A stretch of DNA of 8,433 nucleotides from a virus: UHGV virus genome UHGV-1948712; one strand, written 5' to 3'. The notes under the pieces are model-generated. The model saw only the letters and a list, made by a program, of their open reading frames with translations, made no database searches and was not told the origin of the DNA. Shown here one piece after another: positions 1-8,433 of the stretch. Position numbers and translations under genes: made by a program. Each line of letters starts with the position of its first letter. Positions within the stretch are counted from its first letter, which is position 1.

Positions 1-11
1 TTATGCGCACC
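1..11 (-). other. dif-like XerC-binding arm, site truncated by the window edge
   Basis: Window bases 1..11 are TTATGCGCACC, the exact reverse complement of GGTGCGCATAA, which I recall as the XerC arm of E. coli dif (GGTGCGCATAA-TGTATA-TTATGTTAAAT). The central region and XerD arm would lie beyond position 1. Confidence 0.5.
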
Positions 12-49
12 AATGGTAAGGATGGCGGGAACTGGCGTTACCGGTGCCG

Positions 50-283
50 TCATTGGTCACAGACCGTAATCCACTGGCCCAGGACGTCTTTCAGGCAATG
101 TTGGCATAAATCCAGTTTTAAGCGATTACTGTCACCAAAAATTGAACCGTATCCAGCTAAGTGATTAACAGACAGAAACTCATTGAACTCAATGTCATCT
201 ACCACCGTCTTCGCATGGCGACCACAGCGATCGCAGGTCTTCGCACATAACATTACAGTATCGCTGGATGTGAAAAATTGCAT
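50..283 (-). CDS. small zinc-ribbon protein (CxxC ... CxxC), 77 aa, function unknown
   Basis: ATG at 283..281 preceded by a strong SD (GAGGAG, 5-nt spacer, minus strand 294..289). Protein has CDRC and CQHC motifs about 39 residues apart, a zinc-ribbon architecture like the N-domain of MqsA/YgiT-type proteins. No Ff phage counterpart that I recognise. Confidence 0.6.
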   Translation of the reverse strand: MQFFTSSDTVMLCAKTCDRCGRHAKTVVDDIEFNEFLSVNHLAGYGSIFGDSNRLKLDLCQHCLKDVLGQWITVCDQ

Positions 284-400
284 TTTATCTCCTCGTAATG
301 CTGCCGCGCCGAATCAGCAATAACGCTAAAAAAACAGAATTGTTCGGCTTGGCCAACCCCTGACACTAACAAAAGCAAGTTTTGTCATTGTCCGGGGTTA

Positions 401-709
401 TCATATAAACCAATAGACCGTCCTTACGCCATTCTGGTTATCAATAACATAGCCGCATTGTTTCCTTAAAAATTCTTCTGCTAAATCAATGGCTTTTACA
501 GAAATCTCATAAGAAGGAAGTAAAGTGTATCCTTTCCCTTCACTGGCAGCTGCTTTGATCGCATCCAGAGTATTATCAATCAGTAACAGAGCAAGTGATG
601 CTTCATTTACCTGAGCCGAAGAACTTCTGGCTGCAAGTGTCATTGTTTTTGCTTCTTCCGCTGTAATCGTTCGTTCTGCCAGAGCAGATAAAATCCCATA
701 AGAATCCAT
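401..709 (-). CDS. hypothetical protein, 102 aa
   Basis: ATG at 709..707 with a weak GGGG SD-like motif upstream. Lies between gene IV and the zinc-ribbon gene on the same strand as the phage genes. Not recognisable as an Ff protein. Confidence 0.5.
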   Translation of the reverse strand: MDSYGILSALAERTITAEEAKTMTLAARSSSAQVNEASLALLLIDNTLDAIKAAASEGKGYTLLPSYEISVKAIDLAEEFLRKQCGYVIDNQNGVRTVYWFI

Positions 710-735
710 TAGTTACCCCAATCAATAATGTCCAT

Positions 736-782
736 TTGATGGATAGCGAGCAGGGCTCACGCACCTACCCGCTATCCATCAA
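736..782. repeat. 13-bp perfect inverted repeat with 21-nt loop immediately after gene IV
   Basis: TTGATGGATAGCG (736..748) and CGCTATCCATCAA (770..782) are exact reverse complements. The upstream arm overlaps the gene IV stop codon. No U-tract follows on the minus-strand transcript, so it is not a canonical intrinsic terminator. Position matches where Ff phages carry the packaging-signal hairpin. Confidence 0.5.
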
Positions 783-2044
783 AGTGGACGAATGATATGT
801 GCTGTAAGCAAAATATACATAATACGCTGTTCATTGCTGTCTGCCTTGCTACTGAAAATCCAGCCTATAAGAGGAATTTTACTTATAACTGGAACTGAAC
901 GCTCGGCATTGCTGAACGATGAATCGATAAGCCCCCCCAATAACAACGTCTGACCATCCTTAATCTGGACTGTCGTCTGAATCTGGCGCTGATTAGTAAT
1001 AATATCGGATGCCTGATCATCATTGCTGATTGAATCAGCGCGAGTGTCGATAGTCAGAACTAGTTGCCCGTTACCCATGACAACAGGCGTTACCTTGAGA
1101 GAAACGCCAACATCATGACGCTCGATAGTCTGAAACGGATTATTTACCCCGGCAGATTCGCCCGTTACCTTTCCGGTGATAAACGGCACATTCTTACCTA
1201 CGGAAATGTAACCAGTCTGACCAGACTGAGTAAGAATACGCGGCGTTGAAATCACCTTAGAGCGTGAATTACTCTGGACAGCACGCAGAGACAGCGCCAA
1301 CACGTTACCATCAAAAATACCAAAAGAACCGCCCGCCGTAGAAAGAGCGCTACCCAGTGCAGAAGTATTAAAGCCCCCCGCAACCTTATGACCGGATGCA
1401 GAACCTGCCGCAAACGATAAATCAACGCCATCAGACAAGCTGGTTTCAAACATCAGCGACTGAATGAGAACCTGATCGCGGGCAACATCCACAGAATTGA
1501 TAAAATCGGACAGAACCGGCAGCAGCTCGTCAGGCGCAGAAACAATCAGCGAGTTATTGCCTGGATAATCCACGACATTACCACCACCATTAGAATCAAG
1601 ATAAATTTTAATCAGTTGCTGAACATCGGACGATCTAACTTTTGTCAGCTTAAAATTTCTGACCGTAAGCGCCACAGGTACTGGCTGGTAAGATGGCTCA
1701 GAAGGAAAAGTATCATAAGACTGGTTATCAGAATCATCGGAATCCGAAACCATCTGTGAAGGTAATTTAGACGGCAAAGAGACTACCGCAGGATTGCCAG
1801 AAAGCATGACAAAACCGTTAGCATTCAGAACAGACTTAAAGAAATCATCAATATTTGTTGGATTAACATCAGCATTAAATACGGTTACGTTTCCTTTAAT
1901 ATCAGGATTAACAATAACAGGCTTGCCAGTTTTTGAAGAATACCGCTGAACAAATGAGCGAACAGATGAATTATTTAAATTAACAGTTTCAGCAGAAACG
2001 CAGAATGAACAGGCAAATAAAAAAGCAACAATAACAGAGCGCAT
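779..2044 (-). CDS. IV: gene IV protein, outer-membrane secretin for virion export
   Basis: 421 aa with clear collinear similarity to M13 pIV as I recall it (e.g. SVPRILT, GESA, VNNPFQTIER, GQTLLLGG, SKIPLIG). Start set at Met 2044 (N-terminal MRSVIVAFLFACSFCVSA looks like a signal peptide) with AGGAG SD at 2059..2055. The longer 779..2137 ORF is an in-frame extension overlapping gene I. Confidence 0.9.
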   Translation of the reverse strand: MRSVIVAFLFACSFCVSAETVNLNNSSVRSFVQRYSSKTGKPVIVNPDIKGNVTVFNADVNPTNIDDFFKSVLNANGFVMLSGNPAVVSLPSKLPSQMVSDSDDSDNQSYDTFPSEPSYQPVPVALTVRNFKLTKVRSSDVQQLIKIYLDSNGGGNVVDYPGNNSLIVSAPDELLPVLSDFINSVDVARDQVLIQSLMFETSLSDGVDLSFAAGSASGHKVAGGFNTSALGSALSTAGGSFGIFDGNVLALSLRAVQSNSRSKVISTPRILTQSGQTGYISVGKNVPFITGKVTGESAGVNNPFQTIERHDVGVSLKVTPVVMGNGQLVLTIDTRADSISNDDQASDIITNQRQIQTTVQIKDGQTLLLGGLIDSSFSNAERSVPVISKIPLIGWIFSSKADSNEQRIMYILLTAHIIRPL

Positions 2045-2051
2045 AATAATA

Positions 2052-2426
2052 TTACTCCTGACAGGTAACAGTCTGTAAATAACGGCCTTTTCTAATAACA
2101 ACACGACAGGCATCTTTAATATCAACGGAATAACCATCTTTAATCAAATCAAAATACTGATATTTCATACCTTTTGCATCAACAAACGTAACGGAAACGT
2201 CAAAGCCAAGTTGTGAAAAAGAATTAATAGAAAGTCGGGGTAAGTCACTGGACGAATCAGGCGTTACCGCCCTCGCCTGTTCAGCATAAGCAGATTTAAT
2301 AGCTGAGATTTCATCAACATTCTTTCCAGACTGGAGCCAGAAACCAAACGCAAGCCCCAGCGCCAAAAAAGAAAGCATTAATATAAGACGGTTCGATTTG
2401 CGAAAATAAATTTTAGTGAGGCGCAT
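2052..2426 (-). CDS. XI: gene XI protein, in-frame internal start within gene I
   Basis: Internal Met at residue 241 of pI (MRLTKIYF...), the same position and context as M13 pXI (MKLTKIYL...), followed by a hydrophobic TM segment. 124 aa. Confidence 0.6.
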   Translation of the reverse strand: MRLTKIYFRKSNRLILMLSFLALGLAFGFWLQSGKNVDEISAIKSAYAEQARAVTPDSSSDLPRLSINSFSQLGFDVSVTFVDAKGMKYQYFDLIKDGYSVDIKDACRVVIRKGRYLQTVTCQE

Positions 2427-3146
2427 ATAATAATTAAATCCTCTGTGAACAGAAAATTGACCGTGCGTGATAAATGGTGGCAAAAGCGAAAATGCGCCAT
2501 GAGGATAATTATCTGTGAACGCTTGTTTGGTATTGTAAGCAGAATAAAGAGATTTTCCTGTATATATCCATTTATCAACAGTGATTGAATTAACATTATC
2601 ACCATATTTGACAATGCCAAAGTGTACCTTTGGTAAAGAAAATCTCGCCCCTGAAACCAAATTCATAATGGAGCCAACAAAAGGAATGTTTAATTTATCT
2701 GAACGGCGACAATAAACAACATGCTCAGCAAGCGCCAGACGAGCTTGCTTATCCATTATCGAAATATCCTGAATCAAAAATATAATATCCCAGCCTAATT
2801 TTCTGGCATGTAAAAACCAGTCAATAACAGGTTGTCTGTCTTTATCACCCCATGAGCGGGAATTAAACCAAGTACCACATTCATCAAGTACAAGGAGGCC
2901 ATTACGGGATTCATCGTAAGATGTATTCCCAATACCAATAGCAAGTAAATCATTTAATGAAGGCTTGTCAGGAATGCGAATAACGCGCGTTTTTTTCGCA
3001 TAACGCCCAACCATAGGCATATTATGCAATTTAAGATCAAGATTAGTGGCAACAGGACAACCCTTAGCAAGTCTTTCCTGTATTCTGGAAACACTAACAA
3101 GTGTCTTGCCTGAGCCTAATTTGCCTGTTACTACATAAACCGCCAT
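2052..3146 (-). CDS. I: gene I protein, Zot-like inner-membrane assembly ATPase
   Basis: 364 aa. N-terminus MAVYVVTGKLGSGKTLVS carries a Walker A motif and is near-identical to M13 pI as recalled; DWFLHARKLGWDIIFL and LALAEHVVYCRR are also conserved. The ATG directly follows the gene VI stop (TAAATG). Confidence 0.92.
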   Translation of the reverse strand: MAVYVVTGKLGSGKTLVSVSRIQERLAKGCPVATNLDLKLHNMPMVGRYAKKTRVIRIPDKPSLNDLLAIGIGNTSYDESRNGLLVLDECGTWFNSRSWGDKDRQPVIDWFLHARKLGWDIIFLIQDISIMDKQARLALAEHVVYCRRSDKLNIPFVGSIMNLVSGARFSLPKVHFGIVKYGDNVNSITVDKWIYTGKSLYSAYNTKQAFTDNYPHGAFSLLPPFITHGQFSVHRGFNYYMRLTKIYFRKSNRLILMLSFLALGLAFGFWLQSGKNVDEISAIKSAYAEQARAVTPDSSSDLPRLSINSFSQLGFDVSVTFVDAKGMKYQYFDLIKDGYSVDIKDACRVVIRKGRYLQTVTCQE

Positions 3147-3488
3147 TTAAATCACCCTGTTTGCATAATCAAGAAATTTTTGTTTTAAATCGAAAACAAA
3201 AACACTGATACGAGTAACCATAATAACGTTAACACACGCCTGAAAATGGTCAGGCAATACAGACGCCATTAAATGGGAGAAATCAGCAGGTAAACCGTTA
3301 TACATGACCTCAGCAAGGTACTGCATTAAAAGCGTAACAGTTGTTGTAATTAATGCGACCAATGCAAAGGCGATTAATCCTGTTCTGGTAGCAAGTCGAG
3401 CTAAAAAAACCGCCACATAGCCAATAAACAAAGGAACAAGACCAATAAGAAAACGCAACAATGCAGGAATACCTAATAATAAAGGCAT
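3147..3488 (-). CDS. VI: gene VI protein, minor coat protein
   Basis: 113 aa hydrophobic protein similar to M13 pVI ([13 protein letters not shown].., C-terminal FVFDLKQK). ATG at 3488..3486 overlaps the gene III TGA stop (TGATG coupling). The ORF track start at 3491 is a GTG one codon upstream. Confidence 0.85.
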   Translation of the reverse strand: MPLLLGIPALLRFLIGLVPLFIGYVAVFLARLATRTGLIAFALVALITTTVTLLMQYLAEVMYNGLPADFSHLMASVLPDHFQACVNVIMVTRISVFVFDLKQKFLDYANRVI

Positions 3489-4747
3489 CACTCACCCCCT
3501 TTGCGAAGCAATGAAGTTAAAGAAGTAAAGACATACCAGAACGTAAGGCAATAAAAAACCCATGAAAGAACATCTTTAATAGTCAGTAATTTATCGCAAC
3601 CAATATCAATCTGATAAACCTCTCCGGGAAAAATAATAAAATCAGAGCAGCCGTTACCATTGGGTAAATTAGGCAGCATAGCACCTTTATTTAAAAATGC
3701 TTCCCATAAAGCACCGTGAGAATCCTTTTCAATTCCCAATTCAGAATCAGCTAAAGTAGAAGCGCCATCTAATTCAGAGTCGCCCTTTCCATAACGAGAA
3801 TCACCACCTGAAGGGTCAGCAAAACGGCCAGCCCCCCGCGTAAGATTGTTAATGGAATCGTCAAGACGATTTATATTATTCCTGGTTTGTTCATCGGCAT
3901 TTTTTTTATCATCTGATGAAGTGTCTTTCTCCGTTAATTTATCATGAATATCGCTGGCTATTTTGGGTGAAGCACCTTCGATCGCAGACTGAATATCACC
4001 TTTAGAAAGACTGGAACCACTAGAGCCACCGCCAGAACTACCGCCAGAACTACCGCCAGAACTACCGCCACCGGACTCACCACCGCCAGACTCACCACCA
4101 CCGGACTCACCACCACCGGACTCACCACCACCATTTTGGGGGGTTGAGGGTTTATCAGAGGGGTCAGCTACAGCACCTGTAGGCTTCCATGTTGCAGCGC
4201 AAACAGTACCATCACCCTGACAAACAATGACACCAGTAGCCTCATATTCACAGCCGTTATAGTAGATATAGCGACCACCATCATATGAATCAACATTATT
4301 AAATACACCTTCTTCTGGCGGCTTCGCTTCACAAATTTCTTCTGGTGTCGGGTCAGTAGGTTTTTCATCAGGAACAGAACGCTGAATATTACCAACAATA
4401 TAAGCCGTTAAAGACCAATATTTATCCTTCTGCCCTGGTGAATCGCTGTAAGTACAATCGCCAGTAAAAACAAGACGGAATTCAGAATCAGGCCAGATAC
4501 CCTCATAAGTTGGTTTAATCCGAGTAAATACACTCTGAGCACTGGATTTAGCACCCTGACAAGCGGAGGCCTGCATAGCAGCATCAATATAGTAAACCGT
4601 TATCTTAGAGCCATCCTGATTGGTTATTTGCTTACTTTCAGCATAGGCAGAACTTTGATAAGTGGATTTAGTAATGCTTTCCCATGACTCAGCATGTGAA
4701 AAAGGAGAAATGAGGACAGCGGAAAGAATTAATATTTTCCTTCTCAT
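3488..4747 (-). CDS. III: gene III protein, adsorption/minor coat protein
   Basis: 419 aa from Met 4747 (signal peptide [19 protein letters not shown]), Cys-rich N-terminal domains, long Gly-rich linker, C-terminal hydrophobic anchor. The longer ORF to 4891 would overlap gene VIII and its terminator. Confidence 0.85.
4010..4132. repeat. tandem 15-nt and 12-nt coding repeats (GGGES x4, GGSS x3) in the gene III linker
   Basis: Near-perfect repeats of CCACCGGACTCACCA-type and CCGCCAGAACTA-type units, translating on the minus strand to [41 protein letters not shown]. Confidence 0.85.
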
Positions 4748-4755
4748 AGTAACCC

Positions 4756-4784
4756 GCTTTAATAAAGGGGCAACGAGTGCCCCT
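4756..4784 (-). terminator. rho-independent terminator between gene VIII and gene III
   Basis: 7-bp GC-rich stem AGGGGCA (4766..4772) / TGCCCCT (4778..4784) with 5-nt loop, followed on the minus-strand transcript by UUAUUAAA. Same location as the strong terminator after gene VIII in Ff phages. Confidence 0.65.
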
Positions 4785-4793
4785 GAGTGAAAT

Positions 4794-5036
4794 TCAAACC
4801 GCTTTTGAAGAGAATTTTTTGAAAATACGAATGGCAAGCCCAGCGCCAACCACAGCAACAACAACAGGCCATACTTTACCAATGAGATCATTTGCCTGAG
4901 TCAACAAAGCATCCATTGCCTGACCTGCATAATCAGTACCACCTGTAGCGCCTTCAGCCGCAAAAGAACTTGCAGAAATAAAAAGCGCAGTTGAAGCCAG
5001 AGCAATTTTATATTTAACAGTAGACAGAATTTTCAT
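4794..5036 (-). CDS. VIII: gene VIII protein, major coat protein precursor
   Basis: 80 aa: signal peptide ending SFA, mature part beginning AEG, a hydrophobic core and basic C-terminus KKFSSKAV (M13: KKFTSKAS). GGAG SD at 5048..5045 with 8-nt spacer. Confidence 0.9.
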
Positions 5037-5239: not shown

Positions 5240-5557
5240 TTAACCTTTGATCTCTGCGATGCCACCATCGGAAGCAACATTATAAGTTACACCTTCCCTA
5301 CCCTCCATTGACCACGCACGGACATAGACAGGAATTTGAACTAATTTCCCAATGAAAGCATTCGCCTGGTTCATTAGACCTGCGTTAACGAGAGCCTGAG
5401 AAACTCGAATAATAATTTGATCCTGCTTTGTACCACCAAAACCATCAGGTATTTCAAGGCCAATACCAATTTCATTATAATAGCCCTGACCATTAACTTT
5501 ATTACGTTGGCGGGCTCCCAACATTTTACCCTTAACGAAAAGACCATAATTAGACAT
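5240..5557 (-). CDS. V: gene V-like ssDNA-binding protein
   Basis: 105 aa ORF in the gene V position with AAAGGA SD (7-nt spacer). Only weak similarity to M13 gVp as recalled (segment GQGYYNEIG vs GKPYSLNEQ), so the call rests mainly on synteny. Confidence 0.65.
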   Translation of the reverse strand: MSNYGLFVKGKMLGARQRNKVNGQGYYNEIGIGLEIPDGFGGTKQDQIIIRVSQALVNAGLMNQANAFIGKLVQIPVYVRAWSMEGREGVTYNVASDGGIAEIKG

Positions 5558-5568
5558 ATTACTTTCCT

Positions 5569-5883
5569 TTAATGCCAGCTACTGGCGTGCGAAATACGGT
5601 TGTAATCGAAAATAAAACCTTTCTCATAAATCCATAAGGGGATTTCCGCTGGCTTGGCTTCCAGCGTTCTTATTAGCGGAACAACGTTATTAGAGTCTGG
5701 TGAATCACAATAGAAATTAATATCGATACCGAACGAAAGCAATTCTCTTCTATGGCGATAAAAAGTGTTATGAGGTAACATTTCTTTCATGTTAGCCCCT
5801 TGTTTCCAAAGTAAATAAGTTGACTGTATTTTTCTTGGCAGTTTCGTTATTTTTTCATCACTTAAAATAGCATTCTGATTCAT
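5569..5883 (-). CDS. X: gene X protein, in-frame internal start within gene II
   Basis: Internal Met (MNQNAILSD...) aligned with the M13 pX start (MNIYDDSAVLD...), preceded by a GGGAG SD at 5894..5890. 104 aa C-terminal portion of pII. Confidence 0.6.
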   Translation of the reverse strand: MNQNAILSDEKITKLPRKIQSTYLLWKQGANMKEMLPHNTFYRHRRELLSFGIDINFYCDSPDSNNVVPLIRTLEAKPAEIPLWIYEKGFIFDYNRISHASSWH

Positions 5884-6663
5884 TTCTATTCTCCCTACAT
5901 ATTCAGAGAATAATTGACGTGGTGTTTTCATATTCCAGTTAGCGCCAAGCGTTAAATTTAAATCAATAAGCTCAGTTGTTCTTAATGTTAATTCAATACG
6001 TAATTTATCTTTCGTCCAGTCCAGTAACCCGGCTCGTACAAACTCTTCGGCTATCTGGTGCCCTTTTTTACCAGAAACGTGTTCATCATATTTTGAATAA
6101 AATTTCAGACTCCATCGACGGGAGTTTTTACCTAAATAAACTGTACCGCCTTTCCCACATGCGCGACCATGGCGTGTTTTAGCTTTAAATTCGGCGGCAT
6201 AAAGCCATGATCTGACATTTTCCAGCGTAGATAATGAATACATGTAATTAATGTCAATACGTGAAATTTTATACTGACCTGCCATAACGGCTTTATAAGA
6301 CGCTAAATCATGAGGAATATTCAATAAGGATAAAATCCTGGCATAGACCGTCAACATGAGCCCTTGTATATCATCCGACCCAACAACAGAATGCCCCTGC
6401 AGAAACTTGGAAGGATTACCATCAATGTACAAATGTGTCGCTTTACCTTCGCCATTAGATCCTATCGATCGTACTTTCATCGTTGCTTCATGCGAACCGC
6501 GAACAGTCAGTCGCTTAACGGTTTCCCACTCAATTGCACCGTCAGCATCAACGCTGACAACACTCCCCGCCGGAAGCGGTTTGTGTGTGCAAGGGAAAAT
6601 CCCGGTAAGCCAATCGATCACGAATAAATCCTCAAAATTACAAAAATGATGACTTACTAACAC
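5569..6663 (-). CDS. II: gene II protein, rolling-circle replication initiator/nickase
   Basis: 364 aa with similarity to M13 pII (KFLQGHSVVG vs KVLQGHNVFG; NNVVPLIR vs NNVVPLVR). The start is a GTG at 6663..6661 with a stop 3 codons upstream and no obvious SD, so the exact start is uncertain. Confidence 0.85.
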   Translation of the reverse strand: MLVSHHFCNFEDLFVIDWLTGIFPCTHKPLPAGSVVSVDADGAIEWETVKRLTVRGSHEATMKVRSIGSNGEGKATHLYIDGNPSKFLQGHSVVGSDDIQGLMLTVYARILSLLNIPHDLASYKAVMAGQYKISRIDINYMYSLSTLENVRSWLYAAEFKAKTRHGRACGKGGTVYLGKNSRRWSLKFYSKYDEHVSGKKGHQIAEEFVRAGLLDWTKDKLRIELTLRTTELIDLNLTLGANWNMKTPRQLFSEYVGRIEMNQNAILSDEKITKLPRKIQSTYLLWKQGANMKEMLPHNTFYRHRRELLSFGIDINFYCDSPDSNNVVPLIRTLEAKPAEIPLWIYEKGFIFDYNRISHASSWH

Positions 6664-6790: not shown

Positions 6791-6973
6791 ATGGCAAAGC
6801 GCACGACTTATAACGTGACGGAAGAAAGAAAAATGAAACTAGAACGACTGGCTATAAATGCCAGTGTAAAACTAGGAAAAACAATTACATGGACAGAGAT
6901 TTTAGGTTATCTGATTGATAACTACTCTAAAGATGCAGCAGAAGATCTCATGTCTGCCAAACAAAAGGATTAA
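6791..6973 (+). CDS. ribbon-helix-helix-like small DNA-binding regulator, 60 aa
   Basis: MAKRTTYNVTEERKMKLERLAINASVKLGKTITWTEILGYLIDNY fits the RHH pattern (basic beta-strand, helix A, G-containing turn, helix B) of CopG/Arc/MetJ-type proteins. Transcribed divergently from gene II. No SD before the ATG, so it may be leaderless or start elsewhere. Confidence 0.5.
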   Translation: MAKRTTYNVTEERKMKLERLAINASVKLGKTITWTEILGYLIDNYSKDAAEDLMSAKQKD

Positions 6974-7026
6974 GTACCACGAATGGTACAAACGTGCAGT
7001 ATTACCTACACTGCACGTTCTTTATT
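6974..7026 (+). terminator. tandem hairpins, the second terminator-like
   Basis: Hairpin 1: GTACCA (6974..6979) / TGGTAC (6984..6989), 4-nt loop. Hairpin 2: AACGTGCAGT (6991..7000) / ACTGCACGTT (7010..7019), 9-nt loop, followed by CTTTATT. Sits just after the RHH gene stop. Confidence 0.5.
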
Positions 7027-7061
7027 GTGCGGATTTTGAACAGCAACAAAGGATCAAAAGG

Positions 7062-7484
7062 ATGAGTAGAAATAACGAAACAAGCGGCGTTGAACTGGTT
7101 GTTGTAGGCGTATTTGCTTTCTGTCTGGCAGTTGTTGCCTGGCTAATGAAAACTTTCGATGTTGAATGGCAAACAGCACTGGAAACTGCGCCTGGCCTGA
7201 TAGTCTGGCTGCTTGTTGTCGGTGCGGGGATCTTTTTCGGGATCAAAATGGAAACTGGCCTTATTCGCTGGGGTGCTCCACTGGCGATCGCCCTTCTGAT
7301 TCCGGTATTCAAGCCAATTCTTAAGGAAGCTGCCGGAGTTCGTGAAACGGGTGGGCTGGTTTTCGATGATATGGTTTCGTGGTATGGAACTGGCTGGGGA
7401 ATGTCTCTGATGTTCTTCGGGATTCTTATTGTCGGATACGGTCTGCTTTATTGGTGGCACAGAAGGAATTCATATTATTGGTGA
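7062..7484 (+). CDS. small integral membrane protein (3-4 predicted TM helices), 140 aa
   Basis: ATG at 7062 with AAGGA SD at 7049..7053 (8-nt spacer). Hydrophobic stretches LVVVGVFAFCLAVVAWL, GLIVWLLVVGAGIFFGI, APLAIALLIPVF and SLMFFGILIVGYGLLYWW. The ORF track extension back to 6915 would cross the hairpins and overlap the RHH gene, so the internal start is preferred. Confidence 0.5.
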   Translation: MSRNNETSGVELVVVGVFAFCLAVVAWLMKTFDVEWQTALETAPGLIVWLLVVGAGIFFGIKMETGLIRWGAPLAIALLIPVFKPILKEAAGVRETGGLVFDDMVSWYGTGWGMSLMFFGILIVGYGLLYWWHRRNSYYW

Positions 7485-7495
7485 ATGTCAATCAC

Positions 7496-7519
7496 TTGAA
7501 TTTACAGGTTTTTTATAAT
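7496..7519 (+). promoter_or_regulatory. candidate promoter: perfect -10 TATAAT with poorly spaced -35
   Basis: TATAAT at 7514..7519. The nearest TTGAAT (7496..7501) gives only a 12-nt spacer, so the -35 is doubtful. About 40 nt upstream of the 7557 gene. Confidence 0.25.
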
Positions 7520-7556
7520 TTCAGCCCGCGCTAGTTTGATATTGTGAAAGGTGAAG

Positions 7557-8132
7557 ATGAGTATGCAACCGAATGAAGAAATGGACCTCAGGAAATTTTA
7601 CGCAGAGGGAACAGCTGACTACTTAAAAACTAAAATCAAAAAAAGCGAACGACTTTTAAAAATAAACCAATATCTATCATTTGCCCTCCCTGTCCTAGTT
7701 GGAGGATACGCATCGGTTGATCACAGCTCCAAATATTTTGATTTTTTAGTTTGGGGCACAGGGATATTATCAGTGATAGTCTTGCTTTCTAATTTATACA
7801 CGCTGGTCATGAAGACTGATGAAAATTTATCTCGATATCTGGAATCATACTCTTTCAATAAACTCCTAACTGATTTGTATGGCGAACTGTCGAGCATGTT
7901 TAAATCAAAGACAGGCAACCAGCAACCCGCTAACCATTTGTTTTCAGTGATAAAATCAAAAGATGACTTCAATGCCAAGGAAGATGAAAAATATGTTAGC
8001 AATAATGATAAGAAACGGATTATGTTCGACATTCTGGTAAAGAAAAATAAAGAATGCGTACGTTGCAATAAAATACCGACTAAATTTAACAAGCGGAAAG
8101 GTTGCACAAATTGTGGCAATCTCGTGAAATAA
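7557..8132 (+). CDS. 2-TM membrane protein with C-terminal zinc ribbon, 191 aa
   Basis: ATG at 7557 after AAAGGTGA (7546..7553); the ORF track start is a GTG at 7551. Two adjacent hydrophobic helices (YLSFALPVLVGGYASV; FLVWGTGILSVIVLLSNLYTLV), a K/E/N-rich soluble region, then CVRCNK...CTNCGN. Very AT-rich coding sequence. Confidence 0.6.
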   Translation: MSMQPNEEMDLRKFYAEGTADYLKTKIKKSERLLKINQYLSFALPVLVGGYASVDHSSKYFDFLVWGTGILSVIVLLSNLYTLVMKTDENLSRYLESYSFNKLLTDLYGELSSMFKSKTGNQQPANHLFSVIKSKDDFNAKEDEKYVSNNDKKRIMFDILVKKNKECVRCNKIPTKFNKRKGCTNCGNLVK

Positions 8133-8143
8133 AGGAGAAACAA

Positions 8144-8335
8144 ATGAGTTATAAAGTAGATCAAGTCAAAGCTCTCTGGCTTCAATTGACTGATGCGGAG
8201 AAAAAAGAATTTACAACATATCTTTTTAATGGTGAAAAAAAATCCTTACGTGAAGGATTCGAAAGTTTTAGTGTGAATAAAAGCACTACAATGCAATTTG
8301 GTGATGCAAACGTCTGCCCTGCTTGCGGAAAATAA
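8144..8335 (+). CDS. small protein with C-terminal CPAC motif, 63 aa
   Basis: ATG at 8144 preceded by a strong SD AAAGGAG (8131..8137, 6-nt spacer), 11 nt after the stop of the upstream gene, suggesting translational coupling. Ends ...GDANVCPACGK. The ORF track start at 8102 overlaps the upstream gene and lacks an SD. Confidence 0.55.
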   Translation: MSYKVDQVKALWLQLTDAEKKEFTTYLFNGEKKSLREGFESFSVNKSTTMQFGDANVCPACGK

Positions 8336-8376
8336 AATCTAAAAGATTTTGGTTCGCACAATGACGTTATGCTAAA

Positions 8377-8413
8377 GAGGCCGCTGCGGGATTCGATTTT
8401 CGCAGCGGCCTTT
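8377..8413 (+). terminator. rho-independent terminator closing the plus-strand cassette
   Basis: 11-bp GC-rich stem AGGCCGCTGCG (8377..8387) / CGCAGCGGCCT (8400..8410), 12-nt loop, followed by TTTT. Confidence 0.75.
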
Positions 8414-8433
8414 TCAACATAACGAGTCCTACA

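Follow-up and report, generated by a model that had tools for sequence, protein, structure and literature searches.

Why does a filamentous phage carry two small genes in a stretch that is non-coding in the Ff and IKe phages, and do the two belong together? The question is raised by the virus genome UHGV-1948712, analysed here as a stretch of 8,433 nucleotides (nt) that we call the window. Behind gene IV, which encodes the secretin of this inovirus, two open reading frames (ORFs) lie on the same, minus strand: ORF102 (401-709, 102 amino acids (aa)), the next gene after gene IV, and ORF77 (50-283, 77 aa), between ORF102 and the phage attachment site (attP). A first-pass annotation had noticed both genes and had taken ORF77 for a zinc ribbon like MqsA/YgiT, with a toxin-antitoxin pair as one explanation for the module. 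We arrive with moderate confidence at another reading: near its dif-proximal end, a phage of the YpfPhi/CUS-1/'UPPhi' type carries two accessory genes that are inherited separately, of which ORF77 would be a protein-binding modulator. We have high confidence in the factual part of this reading taken as a whole, namely that the genes are genuine, form no obligate pair, and comprise a clade-restricted ORF102 and a member of a wider ORF77 family, with a conserved hairpin and a dif-proximal position.

Judged by their conservation, both ORFs are genuine protein-coding genes under purifying selection. The two genes called by the first-pass annotation are present in the ORF list and conserved in related elements: between homologues that are 60-70% identical, the ratio of non-synonymous to synonymous substitution rates (dN/dS) was 0.14 for ORF102 against its Salmonella homologue and 0.06 for ORF77 against a plasmid homologue, with dS saturated in both comparisons. 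The strong Shine-Dalgarno motif noted for the second gene is GAGGAG (289-294, minus strand), 5 nt ahead of the ATG at 283, and it is kept in the loci L003 and L020; ORF102 has a weaker upstream motif, TGGGGT at 720-715. The exact sequences of ORF102 and ORF77 are each found on at least 1000 Enterobacterales contigs (RefSeq proteins WP_000378924.1 and WP_001159442.1), and the two match PHROG 4115 (E 2e-68) and PHROG 5435 (E 4.5e-46), both with the function listed as unknown. A tblastn search of 50,697 GenBank phage records found a homologue of neither, and PADLOC defence-system and NCBIfam models gave nothing meaningful for either. A plus-strand ORF (3-164) overlapping ORF77 was treated as spurious, its start codon lying inside the XerC-binding arm of the attachment site. 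The two frames could themselves be chance ORFs in a non-coding region holding packaging and origin signals, given that the equivalent Ff stretch is non-coding and that two strong hairpins lie in the region. We give this reading practically no weight in view of the selection just described, the homologues of ORF77 in unrelated replicons and taxa, its confident AlphaFold2 (AF2) model, and the near-invariance of four cysteines and about 20 further positions in its family.

The sequence comparisons further indicate that ORF102 and ORF77 are not an obligate pair but are inherited separately, in both directions. A sister phage in Salmonella, with a secretin of 93% identity, keeps an ORF102 at 61% identity and, behind it, the intergenic hairpin, and has no ORF77; several genomes contain this phage integrated at a perfect dif (L008-L010, L123, L124). 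Conversely, a second inovirus (L095, L096), with a secretin only 29% identical, carries an ORF77-type gene directly after the secretin gene and no ORF102. Two further inoviruses have an ORF77-type gene and no ORF102. One is from Klebsiella and encodes a Rep_trans replication protein (L126-L129); in the other, from Providencia (L133-L134), a 128-aa gene lies between the secretin gene and the ORF77-type gene. The 128-aa gene was considered as an ORF102 relative and rejected at an hhalign probability of 2.5%. ORF77-type genes are found, too, on plasmids, among them small Rep3 plasmids of Proteus and Providencia, Klebsiella IncF plasmids and one Ralstonia plasmid. The Rep3 plasmids L012, L017 and L018 (Proteus/Providencia, 6.5-7 kb) hold a SIR2-family gene, a ParE/DUF6290 toxin-antitoxin pair and the ORF77-like gene, with variable cargo between them.

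ORF77 is, from its sequence, a predicted four-cysteine zinc finger and the minimal, tail-less form of a large mobile-element family. A profile built from six homologues retrieved 1,655 clusters. Their core domain, for which Pfam has no model, reads CDRCGR...EFxEFxSI...GYGS[IV]FGDG...[LI]DLCQHCxK..LG.W. The CxxC-x39-CxxC spacing given by the first-pass annotation is exact, with C17-x2-C20, 39 residues and C60-x2-C63 in the translation. Across 81 family sequences C20, C60 and C63 are conserved in all 81 and C17 in 80, a serine taking its place in the lineage P0008. The family is found chiefly in Gamma- and Betaproteobacteria and sporadically in further phyla, as well as in viral contigs of 5 to 460 kb. 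In the AF2 model (predicted local distance difference test (pLDDT) 89), C17 and C20 sit in a beta-hairpin knuckle and C60 and C63 at the N-terminus of the final helix, a predicted arrangement that is treble-clef-like and not that of a two-knuckle zinc ribbon. ORF77 has a net charge of -3, and the family core is acidic as well (median net charge -4 and isoelectric point (pI) 4.9 over 81 cores), which argues against generic DNA binding. A phmmer single-sequence alignment to the McrA HNH motif (E 1.6) was rejected as a sign of an HNH nuclease because homologues have Arg, Met or Phe in place of the aligned His42 and the family profile matches no HNH protein in the PDB. One contig labelled as a metagenome-assembled genome of Candidatus Nanosynbacter (L019, JARKOR010000214.1) encodes an ORF77 core that is 100% identical, with a perfect dif of the E. 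coli type behind it; most likely the contig is enterobacterial and was mis-binned into a Saccharibacteria genome.

Many relatives of ORF77 are longer and carry its domain at the N-terminus, in front of tails of the antitoxin type. Three of them (P0083, P0101 and P0110; best E 4e-8) end in Xre_MbcA_ParS_C (PF09722), the toxin-binding domain of ParS/MbcA/Xre antitoxins, as does the relative in L044 (E 1.4e-4). The 102-aa relative A0A0H3NUU8 from the second inovirus matches the C-terminal segment of CcdA over residues 73-96 (E 0.009), and some family members bear the RefSeq label 'CcdA family antitoxin'. A DUF4926 C-terminal fusion and, in the C-terminal part of another relative, a weak match resembling the HI1420-downstream antidote were also seen. 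ORF77 itself ends 14 residues past the second CxxC. It thus resembles CcdA and the ParS/MbcA/Xre antitoxins through its relatives, but differs from them in being tail-less, in having an N-terminal head that is neither ribbon-helix-helix nor helix-turn-helix (HTH), and in that no ccdB, RES or ParT gene lies beside the ORF77 relatives examined. Clustering the neighbours of 55 family members from other taxa revealed no universal partner. In Paraburkholderia loci a small upstream ORF without a Pfam match overlaps the ORF77-type gene by 4 nt, and in Pelomonas/Paucibacter/Roseateles loci (L021, L022, L032, L046) an SNase-like gene lies downstream of it.

These tails bear on the proposal of a toxin-antitoxin or addiction pair, with ORF77 as an MqsA-like zinc antitoxin and ORF102 as the toxin. 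Small neighbouring genes on the same strand at a prophage end would suit such a pair, as would the antitoxin-type tails of ORF77 relatives and a Doc toxin gene elsewhere in the cargo region of a sister episome. With MqsA (YgiT), ORF77 shares small size and a CxxC...CxxC zinc site, and its wider family is tied to antitoxin-type modules. However, it lacks the C-terminal HTH of MqsA, with no HTH match in Pfam and a single terminal helix in the model, and its second CxxC stands at a helix N-terminus. It had no MqsA/YgiT match in Pfam or NCBIfam at E<=1, and hhalign of the 81-sequence ORF77 profile against MqsA gave a probability of 0.75%; the predicted fold showed no similarity to solved MqsA structures. 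The profile and structure analysis that the first-pass annotation had called for yielded a confident zinc-finger model for ORF77, whereas similarity to MqsA, HNH proteins or toxins did not appear. No gene for the partner toxin MqsR (RelE fold) adjoins ORF77, and neither protein matched a toxin family or PADLOC. Either gene is inherited without the other, ORF102 being stably retained where ORF77 is absent, and the two are divided by a 117-nt spacer that contains a conserved, structured hairpin, while ORF77 has its own strong Shine-Dalgarno motif. A pair of this kind is very improbable, and we regard it, like chance ORFs, as effectively excluded. Since relatives carry antitoxin-type tails, a link to toxin-antitoxin systems persists at the level of the ORF77 family and not as the proposed pair.

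What recurs next to ORF77-type genes in Enterobacterales is the site of Xer recombination. The XerC-binding arm GGTGCGCATAA stands, as its reverse complement, at window bases 1-11, in line with the dif-like end described by the first-pass annotation, and the ORF77 stop lies 38 nt from this arm. Homologues do occur in other dif-integrated elements: in Enterobacterales, at least five different elements integrated by Xer recombination have an ORF77-type gene as their last, or nearly their last, ahead of dif. Besides the window phage these are the second inovirus (L096), with attP downstream of the gene; the Klebsiella Rep_trans inovirus (L126-L129), with dif 212 nt downstream; the Providencia inovirus, where one small DUF2158 gene and then a dif-like site follow; and an element of Pectobacterium that includes Gabija-like genes and has its dif ~2 kb downstream. 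Overall, a dif or dif-like site was found 38 to ~2,500 nt downstream in L019, L020, L126-L129 and L130-L134. The plasmid copies L003 and L013 lie in decayed remnants between the same attP and dif-like sites. In agreement with the first-pass annotation, ORF102 and ORF77 thus sit at the integration-proximal end, a place where accessory genes accumulate.

Several of these loci showed further features. In the Klebsiella pneumoniae IncFIB/IncFII conjugative plasmid NZ_CP132652 (L013, 4400-7320), a decayed inovirus remnant lies between attP-type and dif-like sites, ~1.7 kb from the iroBC salmochelin genes. The secretin survives in it as a fragment, beside the hairpin and an ORF77-like gene whose product ends in a CcdA-like tail; filamentous-phage remnants can therefore be integrated at plasmid Xer sites. 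A conserved stretch of ~300 nt separates the ORF77-type gene, or the empty site, from dif/attP in three lineages (L096 4100-4420, L008 8440-8730, L126 6240-6440). It is absent from the window, and in L096 it holds a possible 82-aa hydrophobic ORF on the opposite strand. Upstream of dif in Pectobacterium (L130-L132, 351-8344) we found genes for an OLD-like TOPRIM ATPase and a UvrD helicase, a Gabija-like pair, together with a 438-aa unknown gene, the ORF77-like gene and a stand-alone Xre_MbcA_ParS_C gene. This stretch may be a defence island inserted via Xer recombination; in L130 an additional inovirus comes after the element.

The spacer between ORF102 and ORF77 contains an 18-base-pair (bp) hairpin (355-399, minus strand; DNA fold -15.7 kcal/mol, z -4.5) that is conserved in seven loci, comprising three inovirus lineages and two plasmids. 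Compensatory double changes occur in 7 of its 18 pairs and 94% of cells are paired, while slid windows pair 30-53% of cells and none of 500 shuffles was as good. The hairpin precedes ORF77-type genes in at least three inovirus lineages and is kept in the Salmonella phage that lacks ORF77. Between it and the gene lies the ORF77 leader (284-354, minus strand), which showed no significant fold of its own and whose gene-proximal part ATTGCTGATTCGGCGCGGCAGCATTRCGAGGAGATAAA is conserved at the nucleotide level in a plasmid copy and in Phytobacter. A longer hairpin of ~27 bp overlaps the gene IV stop (730-789, minus strand; DNA fold -24.5 kcal/mol, z -10.5) and shows one compensatory change, A:T to C:G, in the Salmonella relative L008. 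By analogy with the Ff packaging hairpin, whose position it shares, it is a candidate terminator or packaging signal; more broadly, either hairpin could serve as terminator, packaging signal or minus-strand origin. The likeness to the Ff intergenic region extends to strong hairpins both right after gene IV and further downstream, with the difference that those of the window flank protein-coding genes. A consensus scan of window positions 1-1000 found no sigma-70 promoter and no intrinsic terminator, and no Rfam family was matched in the whole window.

ORF102 presents itself in sequence searches as a clade-restricted accessory protein and a near-orphan. Word-based and exhaustive HMMER searches of 1.84 billion representatives returned nothing beyond homologues from this small inovirus clade and one marginal match, and within its phage clade the gene always follows the secretin gene. 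The protein is acidic (net charge -4, pI 4.7), with residues 36-102 nearly invariant and about 35 variable N-terminal aa, and it had no sequence match in Pfam, NCBIfam, PADLOC or the PDB. Its AlphaFold model, made from a three-sequence alignment (pLDDT 72), starts with two short helices at the N-terminus and continues through a long helix, a strand and a further helix to a beta-hairpin. The conserved C-terminal part is possibly a winged-helix-like domain, weakly supported by this model, and its putative recognition helix is rich in Asp and Glu. A structure search of BFVD with the model gave nothing at E<=0.001 and uncharacterized proteins only. A 111-aa chimera on a Citrobacter youngae contig (P0019) joins the first 43 residues of the gene II protein to ORF102 residues 36-102, and is either a tandem-copy assembly artefact or a deletion variant without any of the structural genes. 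Because of this chimera, gene II fragments cluster with ORF102 in 90% clusters.

How, then, is the position of ORF77 to be understood? The main rival to our reading makes ORF77 an element-encoded accessory factor of Xer recombination at dif/attP, which might act in directionality, in excision or tandem copy control, or in protecting the folded single-stranded attP, in a role analogous to that of XafT. XafT, encoded by the TLCphi satellite, is the precedent for an Xer activator encoded by an integrative mobile element exploiting Xer (IMEX), and like ORF77 it is a small protein of a dif-integrating element encoded near the attachment site. The recurrence of the ORF77-type gene as the last before dif in at least five integrating elements, its end 38 nt from the XerC arm and the plasmid remnants bounded by attP and dif-like sites (L003, L013) all speak for such a factor. 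Against it, the Salmonella sister phage occupies a perfect dif in several genomes although it has no such gene, which makes ORF77 dispensable for integration there; the window attP is of the CTXphi type, and host XerCD suffices for integration at such sites, which are not known to need an element-encoded activator. Neither ORF77 nor ORF102 matched DUF3653, the XafT family, or an HTH in Pfam at E<=1, and the ORF77 domain is acidic. The link to dif, moreover, does not extend beyond Enterobacterales: of 55 loci from other taxa, 53 lack an Xer-like site within 2.5 kb. Small Rep3 plasmids hold the gene ~3 kb from an Xer-like site. We judge an Xer factor improbable. A similarly small chance is left to the idea that ORF102, ORF77 or both are transcriptional regulators of the phage (repressor, antirepressor or autoregulator) that bind DNA through a winged helix or a zinc finger. 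Against it stand the acidity of both proteins, the many Asp and Glu residues in the putative recognition helix of ORF102, the lack of a Pfam match to an HTH or any other DNA-binding domain, and the divergent small repressor-like gene that the phage already has beside gene II.

We favour instead two independent accessory genes, one of which modulates a protein. The hairpin and ORF77 would form a cassette exchanged among elements that share dif and often stand there in tandem. Because its domain is acidic throughout the family, ORF77 would be a zinc-stabilized module that binds protein rather than DNA. Relatives fuse the same domain to antitoxin-type, toxin-binding tails without an adjacent toxin gene, and for this reason we suggest that ORF77 may, by binding, modulate a factor of the host or of a competitor while the element is established or maintained. 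This mechanism is tentative, and we would not call it probable. Several observations weigh against the favoured reading. The match to the CcdA tail stays below the Pfam gathering score, and the tails that underlie the antitoxin-like view are missing from ORF77. No cognate toxin gene was found beside the PF09722-fused or CcdA-tailed relatives examined, and neither ORF102 nor ORF77 has a partner or homologue of known function. The repeated position before dif could equally indicate a role in Xer recombination; since the linkage to dif is missing outside Enterobacterales, one function for the whole family cannot be read from position.

The surrounding genome places both genes in a well-populated group of phages. 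The window is a complete YpfPhi/CUS-1/'UPPhi'-type inovirus genome, circularly permuted and cut inside attP1, as joining its ends restores a CTXphi-type attachment region. The XerC-binding arm of attP1 (1-11, minus strand) continues over the window junction into an 11-nt central region and an XerD-like arm TTATGTTGAAA (8412-8433, minus strand), which was found by scanning the circularized window; the uninterrupted site is visible in the circular episome L011. An inverted dif-like site with a 5-nt central region, attP2 (GGTTCGCACAA-TGACG-TTATGCTAAAG, 8351-8377, plus strand), is separated from attP1 by a GC-rich stem-loop (8378-8411, not assigned to a strand), which is followed by TTTT on the plus strand. 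The two make up a pair of inverted dif-like sites in the CTXphi layout and are kept at the cargo end of the integrated copies examined (L001, L002, L008-L010), with a perfect dif adjoining ORF77 (L001, L002) or, in the Salmonella phage, ORF102 (L008, L009). The ORF list contains, all on the minus strand, gene II (5569-6663), gene V (5240-5557), gene VIII (4794-5036), gene III (3488-4891), gene VI (3147-3491), gene I/zot (2052-3146) and gene IV (779-2137, or 779-2044 with the RefSeq start). RefSeq names the gene IV product 'secretin N-terminal domain-containing protein', and relatives carry a Pfam Secretin annotation.

At least 80% of the window was found at ~99% identity in 47 complete E. coli genomes. 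In E. coli UM146 the copy lies next to hipBA, with a perfect dif bounding its ORF77 side; in E. coli C10 and ECONIH2 the phage is present as tandem repeats, and the same phage is found as an episome, the circular Salmonella 'plasmid' NZ_CP140410 of 7,938 bp. Otherwise 99%-identical phages (L002, L011, L125) differ in a cargo region (6915-8335, plus strand) between the small repressor-like gene (6791-6973) and attP. In the window this region codes for a membrane protein and two proteins with CxxC motifs, a 'mobilome CxxCx(11)CxxC protein' and one of 63 aa. Its counterpart in UM146 and ECONIH2 encodes a zinc-binding protein of the ECs_2282 family and two hypotheticals, and that of the Salmonella episome a Doc (death-on-curing) family toxin with no antitoxin annotated. 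A large share of the length variation among near-identical copies comes from the glycine-rich GGGES/GGSS linker repeats of gene III (3958-4134, minus strand), and across copies gene III is 90-100% identical compared with 96-100% for the other genes.

Two hypothetical genes at this position have already been described in the literature. A review of YpfPhi lists two ORFs beside attR, YPO2280a and YPO2281, 'with no predictable functions', which are common to CUS-1 of E. coli K1 and occupy the slot of ctxAB in CTXphi (PMC4266046). In these phages, as in the UPPhi viruses, two small ORFs on the same strand follow the secretin gene beside attR/dif of a dif-integrated inovirus. From their position and the published accounts, ORF102 and ORF77 are most likely the same genes as YPO2280a/YPO2281 and their CUS-1 homologues; the members named in the ORF102 and ORF77 clusters are from E. 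coli, Salmonella and Klebsiella only. They are probably also the genes 'h1' and 'h2', the two hypothetical genes of UPPhi viruses at the corresponding position (PMC7307601). For a tandem triple prophage the same paper refers to E. coli ECONIH2 (PMC7307601), and in that genome (L125, NZ_CP014667 1575015-1593060) we found the same prophage proteins as in the window, including the identical ORF77 accession WP_001159442.1. Resemblance of UPPhi to YpfPhi is there said to be limited to genes II and V (PMC7307601), while near-identical YpfPhi/CUS-1 phages are described across Enterobacterales (PMC4266046, PMC10354491); the naming of UPPhi and YpfPhi/CUS-1 phages in the literature looks inconsistent. 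With the ctxAB region of CTXphi from Vibrio cholerae, the locus shares the paired inverted dif-like sites and its place as a cargo slot, with the assembly genes on one side and the regenerated dif on the other (PMC4266046), but there is no relation in sequence, and ORF102 and ORF77 are small and acidic and show no sign of being toxins.

Fitness as well as virulence of Yersinia pestis and of extra-intestinal E. coli are associated with YpfPhi and CUS-1, and the function of the terminal ORFs of these phages is named an open question in reviews (PMC4266046). Our analysis removes the MqsA and toxin-antitoxin hypothesis and shows ORF102 and ORF77 to be independent of each other. What it adds is that the two genes are separable, how large the ORF77 family is and how it is built, that the family stands next to dif time and again, that some members are fused to antitoxin tails, and that the hairpin at 355-399, which may be a cis-acting phage signal, covaries. 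A bolder reading, which we consider unlikely, is that ORF77 represents a new zinc-finger 'head' domain of antitoxin-like proteins, whose tail-less and short-tailed forms, travelling with the hairpin as a cassette at the dif-proximal tip of many unrelated Xer-integrating elements, are establishment or anti-addiction factors. If true, such forms would neutralize or sense the toxins and defence proteins of hosts and plasmids, or tune Xer recombination, and would constitute a functional class specific to dif-integrating elements.

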